Part shown: positions 1 through 4,350 of the stretch, piece by piece
Layout of the letters: each line of letters starts with the position of its first letter
Position numbering within the stretch: the first letter of the stretch is position 1
From: a virus
Lineage: Duplodnaviria; Heunggongvirae; Uroviricota; Caudoviricetes
Virus record (IMG/VR): IMGVR_UViG_2778261565_000010
Reading direction: 5' to 3' (one strand)
DNA length: 4,350 nt
The notes under the pieces: model-generated
What the model was told of the DNA's origin: nothing
Seen by the model: only the letters and a program-made list of their open reading frames with translations
Database searches by the model: none
Program-made: the position numbers and the translations under genes

Positions 1-77
<77 letters not shown>

Positions 78-556
78 GAATCCACCCATAACACTGTTTT
101 TGGTTTTAACTGTTCCGCGTGCGCTCAGCCGCATTCACCACATCACAAAATTCACTTTAAAAAGGGCGGCAGAGCAGTCACGGAGTAAAACTGATACCGC
201 CAAACGTCACCAGAAAATTGATAACAGAGGGCGTTGCAGCGGGGTTGTCACTTAAGCGTATGGTCAACCTGACAACCCGGTGTCCTCAACGGGGAAGGAA
301 TAACCCCGCCATACTTACCGCCGCGCCATTTCGCGTAGTGCCACAACCGGAAGCGCACGGTCGACGAAAATTTAACGACAGGCTATCTATGAACCAGCTA
401 CCTCGCCGTGCGCTTTCGCGTTATGGTCTGACTTTTCATGGAAATATCCTTTCAGTAAACTGTCAGTGCCGGATGCTCACCCGTGTCCGGCGCACGCACT
501 CCACCTCACCCGTGGAGAACTCCTTAATTACCAACCTTAGCTTCGTTGGTTAGCTA

Positions 557-775
557 TTAACGCTGGTATGTAATCATTCTGGCAATGCTTAATGCCGCTG
601 CTTTTTCCAGCCTGGTGATATCCTGCTCCAGAGCGGACAGATTTTCAGCCTGCTTAGCCTTGGCTTCATTGGCCCATTTCAGATCCTGCGCTGCATTAAT
701 TTTCTGGCGCATCCACTCATAAAGTTCATCATCGGTATAGTCTGGCGCGATGATGACAGGTTCTCGTTTCTGCAT
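557..775 (-). CDS. Hypothetical small protein (72 aa), predicted coiled-coil, function unknown
   Basis: ATG at 775..773 preceded by AAGGAG (complement of 781-786) with 5-nt spacing; TAA stop at 559..557; 72-aa ORF MQKREPVIIAPDYTDDELYEWMRQ... with a helical heptad-like Ala/Lys/Glu-rich C-terminal half. No family recognised. Confidence 0.55.
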   Translation of the reverse strand: MQKREPVIIAPDYTDDELYEWMRQKINAAQDLKWANEAKAKQAENLSALEQDITRLEKAAALSIARMITYQR

Positions 776-867
776 GTCGGCTCCTTGTGGTTAGCGTTGC
801 CTGCTTTTAACCACGTCAGGCGAGGTGGTATCCTCTGAGGGGTCTGTTACTCGAGAGGAAATTGGTT

Positions 868-1068
868 ATGAGTACAATCAAGTTTTCTTGCCCAGAATGT
901 GGTGGCGAAGTCTTTGACACATCCTTTAACCCGCAGGGCTCTGACAGTTTCGCGGGAGCCATCTGCAAAAATTGTGGTCACCTTGTAACTGAAGATGAGT
1001 CCTCGCAGTTCGATGACGAAATCGTTGACAATATCTTCGGTGCACTCACCAGAGACTTTCTGAAGTAA
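868..1068 (+). CDS. Small zinc-ribbon protein (66 aa) with two CxxC pairs (CPEC ... CKNC) and an acidic C-terminal tail
   Basis: ATG at 868 (the ORF track starts at TTG 862) preceded by AGAGGAA at 853-859; TAA at 1066-1068; CxxC-x19-CxxC spacing typical of a zinc ribbon; hairpin 1116-1149 lies 48 nt downstream. Conflicts with antisense ORF 847-1203, which shares the same triplet boundaries. Confidence 0.55.
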   Translation: MSTIKFSCPECGGEVFDTSFNPQGSDSFAGAICKNCGHLVTEDESSQFDDEIVDNIFGALTRDFLK

Positions 1069-1115
1069 AGGCGCATACCGCTTAGTTACCGCTCTGATAA
1101 TTCTTACCTGTCCGG

Positions 1116-1149
1116 CAATGGCGCTGATGTCAATATAAAGCGCCATTGC
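1116..1149 (+). terminator. Perfect 11-bp inverted repeat (GCAATGGCGCT / AGCGCCATTGC) with a 12-nt loop, followed on the plus strand by TGCTTCTTTGCC; possible intrinsic terminator for the zinc-ribbon gene, or a protein-binding palindrome
   Basis: Arms at 1116-1126 and 1139-1149 are exact reverse complements; downstream plus-strand tract is pyrimidine/T-rich but not a clean U-run. Confidence 0.3.
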
Positions 1150-1283
1150 TGCTTCTTTGCCGATCCCGGGATGCCTTCCATTCTGATGTTTGACTTCGCC
1201 CACTGAGAAATCCTCTGTTTCCCCTTAACGCCGGGTAGCGGAACTGTTTGCTGAGAACACCGTGCGGTGTCTTGATGGGTGGT

Positions 1284-1312
1284 AATTTAGTTTTCTCATG
1301 AATGTTGGTCAA
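1284..1312 (-). promoter_or_regulatory. Putative leftward (PL-like) sigma70 promoter: -35 TTGACC (1312..1307), 17-bp spacer, -10 TAAATT (1289..1284)
   Basis: Read on the minus strand: TTGACC-aacattcatgagaaaac-TAAATT. 5/6 match to the -35 consensus, 4/6 to the -10, ideal spacer. An operator-like motif copy overlaps the spacer and -10. Confidence 0.3.
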
Positions 1313-1335
1313 GCATTTTTAATGAGAAAACTCAA
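1286..1335. promoter_or_regulatory. Operator-like pair (OL-like): exact copy of TGAGAAAACTCAA at 1323-1335 and a 12/13 inverted copy (TGAGAAAACTAAA on the minus strand) at 1286-1298
   Basis: Direct sequence identity with the motif at 1856-1868; the motif is near-palindromic (TTGAG-AAAA-CTCAA). The copies bracket the predicted leftward promoter. Confidence 0.4.
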
Positions 1336-1350
1336 TATTTAATGCAAAAT

Positions 1351-1379
1351 AAAGCCAATACATTGAAATGTAAGGCTTT
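1351..1379 (-). terminator. Possible weak intrinsic terminator downstream of the repressor gene (AT-rich bulged hairpin AAAGCC...GGCTTT, followed on the minus strand by ATTTTGCATT)
   Basis: AAAGCC (1351-1356) pairs with GGCTTT (1374-1379), inner ACATT/AATGT pairing; T-rich tract follows on the minus strand. Stem is short and AT-rich, so weak. Confidence 0.25.
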
Positions 1380-1396
1380 AAAATTTGTGAAGGGGG

Positions 1397-1804
1397 TTAC
1401 TGATGTTTGTTACGTTTGCGAGCTTCTAGTAGCTCGGTGAATAGGCGATTAAAATTCTCAACGCGGGCACGGAGTTCGCTGATTTGTGCTTGCTGCTCTG
1501 ATTTTGGAAGTGCGCGATACAATCGCAACATCTCCAACTCATCTTCCGATAAGTCTAAGGCGCTGTTGAGTGCTACTGGTGGATCTGGTGTTTTATCCTC
1601 GTCACCAAACAGTATCCAAGTTGGTGAACATTGCAATACCTCAGCCAGGCGATGCAAATTTTGCCCGCGCGGGGCTGTATGGTCGCTTTCCCATAGTGAA
1701 ATTGATGAGCCAGATACGCCAGCGGCTTTGCTTAAATCGTTTTGACTTAAACCAACCTGTTTGCGTCTTTCTCTAATTCGTTGACCTAAAGTTTTCTCGT
1801 TCAT
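1397..1804 (-). CDS. dicA: Prophage immunity repressor, DicA-like (XRE-family HTH N-terminal domain, C-terminal oligomerisation region), 135 aa
   Basis: 135-aa ORF with ATG at 1804..1802 and TAA at 1399..1397. HTH_XRE signature (GLSQNDLSKAAGVSGSSISLWE) and a LQCSPTWILFGDEDK motif I recall from E. coli DicA, same length as DicA. Divergent from a Cro-like gene. The symbol denotes the family; orthology is unverified. Confidence 0.9.
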   Translation of the reverse strand: MNEKTLGQRIRERRKQVGLSQNDLSKAAGVSGSSISLWESDHTAPRGQNLHRLAEVLQCSPTWILFGDEDKTPDPPVALNSALDLSEDELEMLRLYRALPKSEQQAQISELRARVENFNRLFTELLEARKRNKHQ

Positions 1805-1825
1805 ATTTAGATATCTTAATAACCC

Positions 1826-1855
1826 TTGACTTGAGATTCCTTGAATGATTACTAT
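1826..1855 (+). promoter_or_regulatory. Putative rightward (PR-like) sigma70 promoter for the Cro-like operon: -35 TTGACT (1826-1831), 18-bp spacer, -10 TACTAT (1850-1855)
   Basis: Consensus-like hexamers in the 77-bp divergent intergenic region; the operator-like palindrome sits immediately downstream, over the expected transcription start. Confidence 0.4.
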
Positions 1856-1868
1856 TGAGAAAACTCAA
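1856..1868. promoter_or_regulatory. Operator-like palindrome (OR-like) TTGAG-AAAA-CTCAA between the PR-like -10 and the Cro-like gene's Shine-Dalgarno
   Basis: Exact 13-bp identity (TGAGAAAACTCAA) with 1323-1335; 5-bp inverted arms; position over the predicted +1 is typical of a repressor operator. Confidence 0.45.
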
Positions 1869-1881
1869 CTTTGGAGGGGTG

Positions 1882-2109
1882 ATGTTTAAATCAGACGTAA
1901 TTAATTTTTATGGGACGAAAGCCAAAGTAGCGAAAGCTGCTGGTGTTGATCCATCTGCTGTTTCTCAATGGGGGGAACTGGTTCCTGAAGGTCGCGCGAT
2001 GCGCCTGCAAGAGGCATCCGGCGGGGAACTTCAGTACGACCCCAAAGTTTATGACGAATATCGTAAGGCAAAGCGGGCGGGGCGGTTGAACAATGAAAAT
2101 CACCCCTGA
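1882..2109 (+). CDS. Cro-like small HTH regulator of the DicC/YdaS family (75 aa)
   Basis: ATG at 1882 preceded by GGAGGGG (1873-1879); the ORF track's TTG at 1855 is probably not the start. TGA at 2107-2109. Motif AKVAKAAGVDPSAVSQWGELVPEGRAMRLQEASGGEL matches the Cro-like YdaS/DicC pattern as I recall it; divergent from the repressor. Confidence 0.8.
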   Translation: MFKSDVINFYGTKAKVAKAAGVDPSAVSQWGELVPEGRAMRLQEASGGELQYDPKVYDEYRKAKRAGRLNNENHP

Positions 2110-2644
2110 ACAGGTTTGTGAGGCTCTGGATGCCTGGGTATGTCGACCAGGAATGACACAGGAGCAAGCGACGATATTAATCACGGAAGCATTCTGGGCT
2201 CTGAAAGAACGCCCGAACATCGATGTTCAACGCGTCACGTTTAATGATGGCGAGGTTGATCAACGGGCGCTGGGCGTTAACCGGGTGAAGATATTCGAAC
2301 GCTGGAAAGCTATCGACACCAGGGATAAGCGGAAAAAATTCACGGCGCTGATTCCGGCAATTATGGAGGCTATCCGAATTAGTGATTTCAGGTTGTATCG
2401 TGAGATCAGTGATGGAAAAAGCATTACGTACATGATCGCCGGATTAAACAAAGAATATGGCGATGTGGTGGAGTCCGGGCTGCTTTTTGCGGATCCAGCT
2501 GTTGTGGAACGTGAGACTGACGAGCTTATAGAAAAAGCTATTGCTTTCAAGCATGCGTATCGTCAGCAATATCAATATTACTTTGCAGATAAACAAATGT
2601 CTGCCAGGGGTTTGTATGAGTATCGATGCACTACGATGGGCTAA
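2093..2644 (+). CDS. YdaT-like protein (functional CII analogue in DicA/YdaS-type switches), 183 aa
   Basis: ATG at 2093 overlaps the Cro-like gene's 3' end by 17 nt (coupled translation likely); TAA at 2642-2644. Assignment rests mainly on synteny (the gene following the Cro-like gene) and size; I cannot confirm sequence homology from memory. Confidence 0.65.
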   Translation: MKITPEQVCEALDAWVCRPGMTQEQATILITEAFWALKERPNIDVQRVTFNDGEVDQRALGVNRVKIFERWKAIDTRDKRKKFTALIPAIMEAIRISDFRLYREISDGKSITYMIAGLNKEYGDVVESGLLFADPAVVERETDELIEKAIAFKHAYRQQYQYYFADKQMSARGLYEYRCTTMG

Positions 2645-3128
2645 AAAGGTGAAAACCGGCAGTTCATCCAGTAAGTCTGTATTGACCTGGCTTGCTGATA
2701 TGTGCGGTGCCGATTTGTGTGCATACCCGTCTGTATCTGCACTGGCAGAAGTAACGGAACTAAACAAAAAGACTGTGCAGGACAGCTTACGACACCTGAT
2801 GGAGATTGGGTTAATTGTTGATACCGGTGAGAGAAAAGGCAGAACAAAGCAAATTGTGGTGTACCGACTTATCGGTGTAGAAGAAAGTGTTGCCGAGCCT
2901 GAATACACCCAAAAACGGGAGTCTTTAAAGGTGGGTAAAATTGGTGCTGTTAATAAAAACAGTACCGAAAATGGTTATGTTTCAGCACAAAACAGACCCA
3001 AAAACGGAACTCTTAGCTGCATGGAAAATAACCAAAGACACCCAAATTTTCCATCAAAGACACCCAAAAACGGATCACGGAACCCAAAGGAACCCAAAGG
3101 AACCCAAAGATCTAAACCCCACACATAA
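2616..3128 (+). CDS. Replication initiator (O-like), N-terminal HTH DNA-binding part; frame ends at TAA 3126-3128 just after the tandem repeats, probably truncated by a frameshift
   Basis: ATG at 2616 with AGGGG 5 nt upstream (the ORF track starts at TTG 2541); overlaps the preceding gene by 29 nt. N-terminus (LRWAKKVKTGSSSSKSVLTWLADMCGADLCAYPSVSALAEVTELNKKTVQDSLRHLMEIGLI) resembles winged-HTH domains of phage replication initiators. Iteron-like repeats lie in its 3' third. Confidence 0.7.
   Translation: MSIDALRWAKKVKTGSSSSKSVLTWLADMCGADLCAYPSVSALAEVTELNKKTVQDSLRHLMEIGLIVDTGERKGRTKQIVVYRLIGVEESVAEPEYTQKRESLKVGKIGAVNKNSTENGYVSAQNRPKNGTLSCMENNQRHPNFPSKTPKNGSRNPKEPKGTQRSKPHT
2907..3108. repeat. 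Iteron-like array: three copies of ACCCAAAAACGG (2907-2918, 2996-3007, 3062-3073) plus ACCCAAA at 3040-3046 and in each of the three tandem units; candidate replication origin inside the initiator gene
   Basis: Seven ACCCAAA cores; the last five start at 3040, 3062, 3082, 3092 and 3102 (spacings 22, 20, 10, 10 bp, roughly helical-turn multiples). Analogous to ori-lambda iterons inside gene O. Confidence 0.5.
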
Positions 3129-3666
3129 CGCACGCGAGAGTGCTCCGACCAGTGAGCAGGAAGTTTTGTCGTTACAGGCAGCACCCCTTGTATTCCTGGA
3201 TGGCCTGAGCGAACCCATCGGAAAATTTCCGATGACCGATAGCTGGTATCCGTCACGGGATTTTCGACGACGGGCTGCGTTGTGGGGGATGGCTTTGCCG
3301 GAGACAGAATTTACACCTGCTGAACTTGCCGCCTTCCGGGACTACTGGGCAGCGGAGGGGAAAGTGTTTACGCAGATTCAGTGGGAGCAGAAATTCGCCC
3401 GTCACGTAAATCACGTCAGGGCGCAGGTTAAACCAGTCAGCAAGGGGGTAAACCATGCAGCAGCACCAGGTGGCACCGCATCACGGGCAGTTCAGGAAAT
3501 TCGGGCAGCACGTGAGCAGTGGGAACGTGAAAACGGATTTATCAGCGACGGAAACGGTCTGGAAGCTGTGGGAACTCATGGGGGAGGTTTATTCGAACCG
3601 CTGGACCCAGAAGAACGGGGCCGCACCTTCGAAGCTCTGGATTGCACAGATTGGCGCGATGACTGA
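2941..3666 (+). CDS. DnaT-like ssDNA-binding domain ORF; probably the C-terminal part of the replication initiator displaced into the +1 frame (ORF-track boundaries; no credible independent start)
   Basis: Frame open from 2941 to TGA 3664-3666. Segment GKFPMTDSWYPSRDFRRRAALWGMALPETEFTPAELAAFRDYWAAEGKVFTQIQWEQKFARH closely resembles the C-terminal domain of E. coli primosomal protein DnaT as I recall it. High G at codon position 1 through 3455-3666 supports coding in this frame. Confidence 0.6.
   Translation: MVLLIKTVPKMVMFQHKTDPKTELLAAWKITKDTQIFHQRHPKTDHGTQRNPKEPKDLNPTHNARESAPTSEQEVLSLQAAPLVFLDGLSEPIGKFPMTDSWYPSRDFRRRAALWGMALPETEFTPAELAAFRDYWAAEGKVFTQIQWEQKFARHVNHVRAQVKPVSKGVNHAAAPGGTASRAVQEIRAAREQWERENGFISDGNGLEAVGTHGGGLFEPLDPEERGRTFEALDCTDWRDD
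3079..3108. repeat. Perfect tandem repeat, 3 copies of the 10-bp unit GGAACCCAAA
   Basis: Directly visible: ggaacccaaa ggaacccaaa ggaacccaaa at 3079-3088, 3089-3098 and 3099-3108. The unit length is not a multiple of 3, so copy number sets the reading frame. Confidence 0.95.
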
Positions 3667-3697
3667 GCAGCAAATCTGACAGGTCTGCCGCCAGTGC

Positions 3698-4120
3698 ATG
3701 GACCGCTGCCGGGCGGGTGAAACATGGCCTCCGGACCTGGCTGAGTTTGTGGCGCTGATTTCAGAAAGCGGGGCCAATCCATTTGGCCTGACGGTGGATG
3801 CTGTGATGGAGGAGTACCGCCGCTGGCGTGATGAGTCCTGGCGATATGACGGAAGCGACAAATATCCGTGGCCTCAGCCTGTGCTGTACCACATCTGCCT
3901 CGAAATGCGCACCAGAGGGATTGAGCGCCAGATGACGCAGGGTGAGTTAAAACGACTTGCGGAACGGCAACTGACGAAATGGGCAAAGCATGTTGGTAAC
4001 GGGATGAGTGTTCCGCCAGTGCGACGACAACTGGAAGGGGCGAAACACCCGCAAGGGCCAACGCCAATTGAACGGCTGAAACAGGAATACGAACGCCGGA
4101 AGGCAGCTGGTTTTATTTGA
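3698..4120 (+). CDS. Lambda P-like replication protein (helicase-loader family), C-terminal two-thirds homologue, 140 aa as called
   Basis: ATG at 3698, TGA at 4118-4120. From memory of lambda P: FVAL ~ FVAW, YPW shared, ELKRLAERQLTKWAKHV ~ ELRRKAADELVHMTARI, and similar Pro-rich/basic C-terminal tails. No Shine-Dalgarno upstream of 3698; see the finding on the in-frame upstream ORF. Confidence 0.65.
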   Translation: MDRCRAGETWPPDLAEFVALISESGANPFGLTVDAVMEEYRRWRDESWRYDGSDKYPWPQPVLYHICLEMRTRGIERQMTQGELKRLAERQLTKWAKHVGNGMSVPPVRRQLEGAKHPQGPTPIERLKQEYERRKAAGFI

Positions 4121-4153
4121 ATCTGAGAAACGATTTTGTCGGAGGAAATTTTA

Positions 4154-4350
4154 ATGGAAACCGTATTTGACGCACTGAAAGCAATGGGAAAAGCCACATC
4201 GGTAGAACTGGCCGCGCGACTTGATATCAGTCGTGAAGAGGTTCTCAACGAGCTGTGGGAACTCAAAAGAAATGGCGTCGTTGATAAAACTGGTCACACC
4301 TGGTTTCTGGCTGGCGAAGGTGAATCCCGGGTAACCGAAGAGCGGCCAGT
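4154..4350 (+). CDS. Hypothetical small winged-helix-like protein, 3' end beyond the window
   Basis: ATG at 4154 with GGAGGAAA (4141-4148) upstream; open to the window end (65 codons): [56 protein letters not shown]..., the pattern of a MarR/ArsR-type recognition helix followed by a wing. Confidence 0.5.

Follow-up and report, generated by a model that had tools for sequence, protein, structure and literature searches.

We analysed a 4,350-bp stretch of viral DNA (IMG/VR record IMGVR_UViG_2778261565_000010; hereafter the window), the immunity and replication region of a lambdoid prophage of the Qin/PPompW type in Escherichia coli. Within its replication initiator gene, in the part that encodes the linker between a helix-turn-helix (HTH) domain and a DnaT-like domain, lies an array of short repeats. 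From sequence comparison we consider it probable that this array is the cis-acting replication origin of the prophage, or at least the initiator-binding core of that origin. By analogy, it most likely works in the manner of ori-lambda, the origin of phage lambda; its initiator falls outside the lambda O family. This reading is supported because the array is constantly associated with the DNA-binding domain, is conserved at the level of DNA, moves with the N-terminal module and lies in replication modules.

The origins of replication modules that are not of the lambda type are unmapped in E. coli prophages. This includes the HTH_36 'Eru' types of Shiga toxin (Stx) phages: HTH_36 proteins have been recorded in several such replication regions, and their origins were not located (PMC8951638). 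The array provides a concrete candidate origin for a widespread module, being present in 879 of 5,426 complete E. coli genomes. Furthermore, its pair of motifs, palindromic iterons followed by GAAYCTAYCA, is a search signature that finds what seems to be the same kind of origin in 62 of 80 viral contigs retrieved with the GAAYCTAYCA-type pattern by itself.

An array of six iterons and a separate tandem

The heptamer ACCCAAA occurs seven times in the window, always on the plus strand, with copies starting at 2907, 2996, 3040, 3062, 3082, 3092 and 3102. Dinucleotide-preserving shuffles gave a mean of 0.94 copies and a maximum of 4, and none of 200 shuffles reached seven. The 12-mer ACCCAAAAACGG is exact at 2907, 2996 and 3062, and Tandem Repeats Finder reports 3.1 copies of GGAACCCAAA at 3079–3109 with 100% matches. 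The original prediction for this DNA had counted three exact 12-mers and four further ACCCAAA cores, the last five of them 22, 20, 10 and 10 bp apart; a recount confirmed these numbers, and the coordinates and spacings are correct. It had also treated the seven cores as a single array. The cores stand, but they do not form one class. The last three, in 10-bp tandem, belong to a separate element found throughout the family.

We defined the iteron positions by aligning sequences from eight enterobacterial genera, in which the N-terminal domain is 69–79% identical to that of E. coli. On this alignment the E. coli array consists of six positional iterons of CCCAAAAACGG type (2907–3073), followed by the separate tandem, which we call class II (3079–3108). 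All are on the plus strand. Iteron I (2907–2918), whose position is conserved in the eight genera, reads ACCCAAAAACGG followed by G. Positions II (2934–2947) and IV (2961–2974) are degenerate in E. coli, where they read GGTAAAATTGGTGC and GTACCGAAAATGGT; relatives carry ACCAAAAACGGGAC and GTACCGAAAACGGG, respectively. Iteron V (2996–3007) is again ACCCAAAAACGG. Position VI (3040–3051) is the variant ACCCAAATTTTC, represented in relatives by an inverted copy or by the palindromic form CCAATTTTGG. Iteron VII (3062–3073), also ACCCAAAAACGG, varies least: the eight sequences all have CCCAAAAACGG unaltered, and 11 consecutive bases do not change. At all six positions the CC..A..GG columns are invariant across the eight genera, while the spacers diverge. 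The array thus fits the generic description of an iteron array: three or more similar sites that cluster beyond chance and hold their position among relatives.

Past iteron VII the alignment continues as c-GGAAyCyA...., and the other genera read GGAATCTACCA..GGAACCATAAAGATCT. The class II tandem of the window comprises three copies of GGAACCCAAA; relatives in which the gene is intact have two units. Because this tandem is a shortened E. coli version of the unit in the other genera, whose family-wide form is GAAYCTAYCA, we assign the last three ACCCAAA cores to class II.

The original prediction's GATC sites at 3073 and 3109 are confirmed, but the window shows no enrichment of GATC (10 sites, 14.4 expected). 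The site at the junction between the array and the C-terminal coding region (3109–3112, within AAAGATCTAAA) is kept in most enterobacterial relatives (L088–L093 aligned), and the one at 3073 varies.

A second element shared across the initiator family

We scanned one genome per species with the alignment of the N-terminal domain and obtained 26 loci; three more (L085–L087) came from protein look-ups, giving 29. The 26 scan loci are 32–77% identical and represent Enterobacterales, Plesiomonas, Acinetobacter, Oleiphilaceae, Reinekea and Cupriavidus, as well as Sulfuricella, Methylophilaceae, Methylococcaceae, Zoogloeaceae, Roseibium and Desulfovibrionaceae. The most clustered 7-mer of the whole locus (about 4 kb) falls directly 3' of the HTH domain in 21 of the 29.

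Judged from these sequences, relatives in the Gamma-, Beta- and Deltaproteobacteria share one layout: an HTH_36 domain, then lineage-specific and mostly palindromic iterons, then class II units. The iterons include GTCCCAAAAACGGGAC, GTCCCAAATTTGGGAC, GTACCAAAATTGGTAC, CCCCGAA..TTCGGGG, AGTGCCAAAAGTGGCACT, AGTCTCACCATGAGACT and units containing TACCGGTA. The second element is far more uniform. Allowing at most one mismatch, one to four units of GAAYCTAYCA stand behind the last iteron in 23 of the 29 loci, all on the coding strand and 58-fold denser there than elsewhere in the loci. Of the other loci, most show recognizable class II variants, for example GGAACAGAAG in Cupriavidus.

The iteron cores differ among lineages, and related recognition helices have common cores. 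A more specific rule, that the residues KT in the recognition helix predict a CCnAAA core, held in 15 of 15 and 8 of 8 cases at first; the larger set contains exceptions (L144 and L145), and for this reason we claim only that the iteron core tracks lineage.

The C-terminal domains of the family vary (DnaT, Phg_2220_C or none recognized). The next gene encodes either a lambda-P-like loader or a DnaB-like helicase, which are the two classic lambdoid arrangements.

We also ran the search in reverse, querying IMG/VR with the class II DNA pattern alone (GAAYCTAYCANNGAAYCTAYCA). The pattern brought back 80 loci, and in 62 the motif lies at about residue 80–230 of an open reading frame (ORF) whose N-terminus matches the hidden Markov model of the family (E 8e-4 to 1e-41). 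The other 18 comprise one HTH ORF with the motif in another frame, two non-coding arrays, ten hits in a single unrelated gene and five singletons. On the strength of this reverse test, we regard the class II element as a specific signature of the HTH_36 initiator family.

A class II-like sequence, GAACCTATCATT, occurs three times in another viral contig (L122, IMG/VR 3300036985_001601, about 9870–10100), beside AT-rich DNA and a perfect DnaA box, TGTGGATAA. No HTH_36 gene was found nearby, and this may be an unrelated type of origin.

Conservation of DNA rather than peptide

That the array is conserved as DNA, and not as protein, is strongly supported by the comparison of sequences. In the window the ACCCAAA cores are read in all three frames: as TQKR in one, as RPKNG, TPKNG and EPK in another, and as HPN and NPK in the third. 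In relatives, too, the motifs fall in frames 0, 1 and 2, even inside one gene, and class II is read as ESTN or as NLP. At one locus (L086) the array spans the stop codon of a stand-alone HTH gene of 126 amino acids. Two further loci (L137 and L178) have five iterons and class II units in non-coding DNA with stops in all frames. The first of these (2170–2400) shares IMG/VR contig 2547132289_000010 with an ordinary in-gene array (L195), and AT-rich DNA lies upstream of the non-coding array. Such a non-coding array may act as an additional origin or in control.

Variation within the E. coli population points the same way. The HTH domain has 1 non-synonymous to 19 synonymous changes; the spacers of the linker have 18 to 6. 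The linker peptide is thus weakly constrained, yet the motifs persist.

These observations bear on the suggestion that the repeats are a by-product of slippage in a low-complexity linker rich in P, K and N, with no function in cis. There is some basis for it: the linker peptide is indeed under little constraint, the 10-bp unit demonstrably slips, the allele with 10 additional base pairs arose twice, and frameshifted alleles are found in Klebsiella as well (see below). Slippage in a coding repeat does not, however, account for a motif that appears in three frames, crosses the stop codon of L086 and recurs in the non-coding DNA of L137 and L178; nor for iteron positions that are kept across genera while the spacers change; nor for GAAYCTAYCA units that are kept from Enterobacterales to Desulfovibrionaceae in different frames, at 58 times their flanking density. 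Because the motifs cross stops, ignore frame, hold their positions and occur outside genes, this explanation is already contradicted, and we consider it very improbable.

The initiator and its exchangeable modules

The N-terminal domain (2616–2900, plus strand) is a predicted winged helix, probably of the HTH_36 family, judging from Pfam, an AlphaFold2 (AF2) model and Foldseek, and is the presumed iteron binder. The E. coli protein scores 20.8 bits against HTH_36 (PF13730), below the 25-bit cutoff; alignable relatives score 30–53 bits. The AF2 model of residues 1–89 is a winged helix with an H-H-H-H-beta-beta layout (predicted local distance difference test score, pLDDT, 74). Its best Foldseek matches are dimeric winged helices of the ArsR, MarR and CodY type, with template-modelling (TM) scores of 0.5–0.6. 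Likeness to dimeric winged helices would fit a dimer on a palindromic site, though it is not specific to initiators. The Foldseek search of the N-terminal model gave no specific link to an initiator fold, and a profile sequence search for relatives of solved structure found only weak generic winged-helix regulators.

Homology to lambda O was considered and rejected. Profiles of 4 and 25 sequences gave hhalign probabilities of 2–3% (2.4%, E=0.019, for the 25-sequence N-terminal profile), and we claim only an analogy. In the initiator Pfam finds DnaT and the sub-threshold HTH_36 match, and no Phage_rep_O N-terminus.

The C-terminal DnaT cassette (3110–3666, plus strand) is a separate mosaic module, shifted in the window into the +1 frame with respect to the N-terminal coding part. 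DnaT (PF17948) scores 61.5 bits against a cutoff of 25, over residues 201–267 of the intact allele. The array (2907–3108) sits between the end of the HTH domain at about 2900 and the start of the cassette at about 3110. A short gene for a lambda-P-like helicase loader follows (3659–4120, plus strand), its ATG at 3659 overlapping the end of the initiator gene; Phage_lambda_P (PF06992) scores 57.1 bits (E=2.5e-15) in the allele of E. coli strain AVS0790.

Nucleotide identity of about 89% to the ydaU and ydaV genes of Rac-SA53 and to phage pPE4 begins at 3106–3110, exactly at the end of the array. Both Rac-SA53 and pPE4 have N-termini unrelated to that of the window initiator. Since the homology starts where the array ends and the N-termini are unrelated, we conclude that the array travels with the DNA-binding module, just as the iterons of lambda accompany the N-terminus of O.

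The pPE4 sequence has features of its own (L004, vB_Apl-pPE4, PP818812; 2433–2469 and 2501–3747). Its DnaT cassette and P-like gene are 88.6% identical in nucleotide sequence to those of the window prophage, and its N-terminus, of a third type, carries a separate 12-bp tandem, GCCTAAGGATAA, immediately ahead of the junction. It is deposited as an Actinobacillus phage, a host assignment that looks odd.

Comparison with known origins

The closest parallel is with lambda. Lambda and Stx phage origins consist of iterons and an AT-rich tract in the middle of O, and the number of iterons varies between phages (PMC7466680). In ori-lambda, including the Stx variants 933W and P27, the mid-gene iterons encode the linker between a DNA-binding N-terminus and a loader-interacting C-terminus, as in the window, and a gene for a P-family loader follows in each. 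Lambda and the present family both have iterons with dyad symmetry and a central A-tract (tCCCTCaaaacGAGGGa in lambda, GTCCCaaaaacGGGAC in the family) and both include an AAATT variant. In both, iteron number varies between relatives and alters the length of the protein, and natural hybrids recombine just to the right of the array. In design, and in where they lie within the gene, the lambda iterons match the array, and the original prediction had drawn the comparison with lambdoid origins. Its proposal of a lambda-style origin within a gene holds for the layout of array and initiator, on comparative evidence, and fails for the protein, which is not a homologue of lambda O by sequence.

The differences are equally clear. 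The window initiator has an N-terminus of probable HTH_36 rather than Phage_rep_O type, and its C-terminus is DnaT-like. Ori-lambda has four iterons at about 20–24 bp, whereas the window has six positions at 22–44 bp. In place of the A/T-rich tract of about 40 bp in lambda, the family has a tandem of 10–13 bp units that is conserved in sequence and has 50% GC in E. coli.

A second parallel is with the P22-type initiator–helicase modules (genes 18 and 12). Some relatives (L104 and L110) likewise pair an HTH_36 initiator and an in-gene array with a DnaB-like helicase. The window differs in having the P-like loader arrangement; this comparison is with the general layout of the P22 module.

Iteron plasmid origins with winged-helix Rep proteins, including some annotated HTH_36, resemble the family in placing repeated initiator sites beside a repeated unwinding element and in using a winged helix as the binder. 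The window array differs in lying inside its own initiator coding sequence, in a phage setting and without DnaA boxes. In the literature searched, the three papers that pair 'HTH_36' with 'iterons' all concern plasmids. Rep proteins are reported to bind one strand of the repeats in the DNA unwinding element (DUE) (PMC4081077).

Finally, an active origin, oriJ, has been reported for the Rac prophage (PMC3945230). The window shares with Rac-SA53 the DnaT cassette and P-like gene discussed above. Unlike the window initiator, Rac-SA53 YdaU has an unrelated N-terminal domain, and this iteron array is absent.

Where the DNA might open

The original prediction held that no obvious AT-rich unwinding region follows the array. 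This is true of the DNA after the array (3111–3180, 50–60% GC), but an AT-rich stretch lies within the array itself at 2919–2995, with 30–43% GC in 40-bp windows, covering the decayed positions II and IV and their spacers. These windows are lowest, at 30–32%, at 2920–2980, and a minimum of 27–32% was also obtained at about the same place. This stretch is a candidate easy-melting site in the E. coli version.

In relatives the class II tandem offers another candidate. In 14 relatives out of 24, among them ones from hosts with 56–65% GC, local GC content is lowest at the tandem itself or at its 3' edge, and on this basis class II may be the functional equivalent of the A/T-rich tract of lambda or of the 13-mers of oriC. 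The 13-mer DUE repeats of oriC and the DnaA-trios serve as analogues for the class II tandem only. They, too, are short tandem units of fixed orientation, two to four in number, beside the last initiator box. Their sequence is unrelated, and class II, unlike them, is not AT-rich in E. coli.

We raise, tentatively and without counting it as likely, a stronger version of this idea: that the GAAYCTAYCA tandem is a dedicated, sequence-specific element for opening or helicase loading, recognized, possibly as single-stranded DNA, by a conserved part of HTH_36-type initiators. The recognizing part would be the near-invariant MSLDATRWAW...LLSLADRA region. Class II always stands 2 bp after the last iteron in a single orientation, and it persists from Enterobacterales to Desulfovibrionaceae through changes of iteron and of C-terminal domain. 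If the idea is right, class II would be the phage counterpart of the oriC 13-mers and DnaA-trios, replacing the plain A/T-rich tract of lambda, and iterons plus class II would be a general, searchable origin marker for a large, experimentally untouched class of proteobacterial prophages.

A slipped repeat has broken the initiator gene

The array lies inside the initiator coding sequence, as first predicted, but that coding sequence is not intact in the window, because a third 10-bp unit shifts its frame. The HTH frame (2616–3128, plus strand) encodes the winged helix and linker, 170 amino acids in all, and ends at TAA 3126–3128 as a result of the +10-bp frameshift; the DnaT frame, which runs to 3666, is a different one. 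The gene is therefore split.

The closest complete genome, strain AVS0790, is 99.7% identical across 77–4350, with only three differences in 4,274 bp: a substitution in ydfC (659), the extra 10-bp unit and a C to T change at 3677. Two of the three damage replication genes. In AVS0790 the initiator is intact, 346 amino acids long and annotated as a DnaT-like single-stranded-DNA-binding domain-containing protein. Alignment shows two GGAACCCAAA units in AVS0790 and in Stx2_14040/PPompW, and three in the window, a 10-bp gain against both intact alleles. We place the extra unit at 3079–3088 (plus strand), an arbitrary choice among three identical units. The duplication arose by slippage and puts the frame out by +1. 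The initiator coding sequence of the window is thus a pseudogene created by tandem-repeat slippage, an indel of exactly one unit.

The three-unit allele is rare. It occurs in none of 80 IMG/VR loci with a 99–100% identical N-terminus, about 70 of which have the 346-amino-acid ORF, and in one of the 879 array-bearing complete E. coli genomes, the other 878 carrying fewer units. The single case is strain 2013C-3264 (L114, NZ_CP027544, 9001–9044), where the Prokaryotic Genome Annotation Pipeline (PGAP) marks the allele as frameshifted. Its module is 95% identical to that of the window, with 108 mismatches in 2,326 bp. Given this divergent haplotype, and given that AVS0790 is only three changes from the window, the duplication must have arisen at least twice. 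As an alternative we considered that programmed frameshifting bridges the extra unit. This calls for a +1 shift, there is no known +1 signal and the allele is found once in 879 genomes; we favour mutation.

The lambda-P-like gene is also affected. The C to T change at 3677, relative to AVS0790 and Stx2_14040, turns codon 7 from CGA to TGA if the start is the ATG at 3659. Restart at the ATG at 3698 is possible and would give 140 amino acids. From the initiator frameshift and this early nonsense codon, we conclude that the replication module of the window prophage is decaying. The cis element persists, but for it to fire an intact initiator of matching specificity would have to be supplied in trans.

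Runs of A and a 10-bp tandem within coding DNA make this candidate origin frameshift-prone, and prophage replication has been knocked out there repeatedly. The finding bears on how prophages turn cryptic, and on whether a related co-resident phage might still fire or titrate, in trans, the origin of a broken prophage.

Klebsiella relatives (L085, K. pneumoniae CP063913, 3001–4015; P0004, P0005, P0006 and P0008) are often split or truncated within the array. Their arrays hold runs of A5–A8, and the truncated proteins end at an out-of-frame ..PHT* stop, as in the window. These splits could be real frameshifts or homopolymer sequencing errors.

A model for initiation and its alternatives

We propose the following model, by analogy with lambda O and its origin. 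Dimers of the N-terminal winged helix would bind the six CCCAAAAACGG-type iterons, each with an A-tract and palindromic in relatives, and build a nucleoprotein complex resembling the O-some. The DNA would then open beside the last iteron, either at the conserved tandem of GAAYCTAYCA type (in E. coli, GGAACCCAAA) or in the AT-rich part within the array, both being candidates. Host DnaB would be brought in by the DnaT-like C-terminal domain together with the lambda-P-like protein encoded downstream, and rightward transcription from the Cro-side promoter would cross the origin. Initiator binding, unwinding, helicase loading and origin firing are all predicted here from known systems.

A number of observations weigh against an origin. 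To the right of the iterons there is no lambda-style A/T-rich tract, and the 30 bp past the array have 50% GC. The window contains no DnaA box (TTWTNCACA) and no GATC cluster. Foldseek returned no match at E<=1e-3, and the generic winged-helix fold comes nearest to those of transcriptional repressors. In E. coli the iterons are only weakly palindromic, and two of the positions are degenerate. Within E. coli, 7 of 68 columns vary in the cores and 23 of 135 in the spacers, which is no significant deficit in the cores (Fisher p=0.29), and we therefore base the claim of conservation on the between-genus data only. The window initiator and possibly the loader are broken, and the element is probably inactive here. 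The searchable literature contains no experiments that demonstrate binding or replication for a member of the family, and in the literature searched, which did not extend to subscription-only reviews, no paper describes these motifs or an origin for this module.

Some of these points would be explained if the array binds the initiator but has a regulatory role (autorepression, a transcription roadblock, copy control or handcuffing, or exclusion of related phages by titration) and replication starts elsewhere. A fold nearest to dimeric repressor-type winged helices, and the lack of an AT-rich region or DnaA box past the array in E. coli, agree with this, and the second, non-coding array on one phage contig (L137 beside L195) is what would be expected of control or incompatibility sites. 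We nevertheless think it unlikely. The array is joined to an architecture and to neighbours typical of initiators (a DnaT-like domain and a P-like loader or DnaB-like helicase), its position and design mirror ori-lambda, and GC content is locally lowest at class II in 14 of the 24 relatives, as expected of an unwinding site. Moreover, a regulatory role overlaps with an origin, as iteron origins commonly serve both.

A partition (centromere-like) or packaging-related site, bound by a winged helix of the TubR or ParR kind, is scarcely credible: centromeres are also iteron arrays, the N-terminal profile has a weak similarity to TubR (E 0.04–0.15) and Foldseek lists the pNOB8 centromere-binding protein at rank 35, but neither similarity is significant, no gene for a partition NTPase lies nearby, the C-terminal domain is of primosome type, helicase loaders or helicases follow, and the position past the Cro and YdaT-like genes is the lambdoid replication slot.

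Prophage context of the window

The remaining features of the window conform to its assignment. The antisense small RNA DicF (164–215, minus strand; Rfam RF00039, 76.7 bits) lies downstream of ydfC, as in the dicB operon of Qin. After DicF come ydfC, a zinc-ribbon ORF, a DicA/CI-like repressor gene (1397–1804, minus strand), a P22-Cro/DicC-like gene, a YdaT-like gene (2093–2644), the initiator gene, the short lambda-P-like gene and the start of a DUF1627 gene. A promoter-like site (1826–1855, plus strand), a consensus match only with 9 of 12 hexamer positions matched, stands upstream of the Cro/DicC-like gene. Rightward transcription from it would cross the array, as transcription from lambda pR crosses ori-lambda. 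Positions 1–76 of the window are unmatched in the AVS0790 prophage, which places a mosaic boundary just past DicF.

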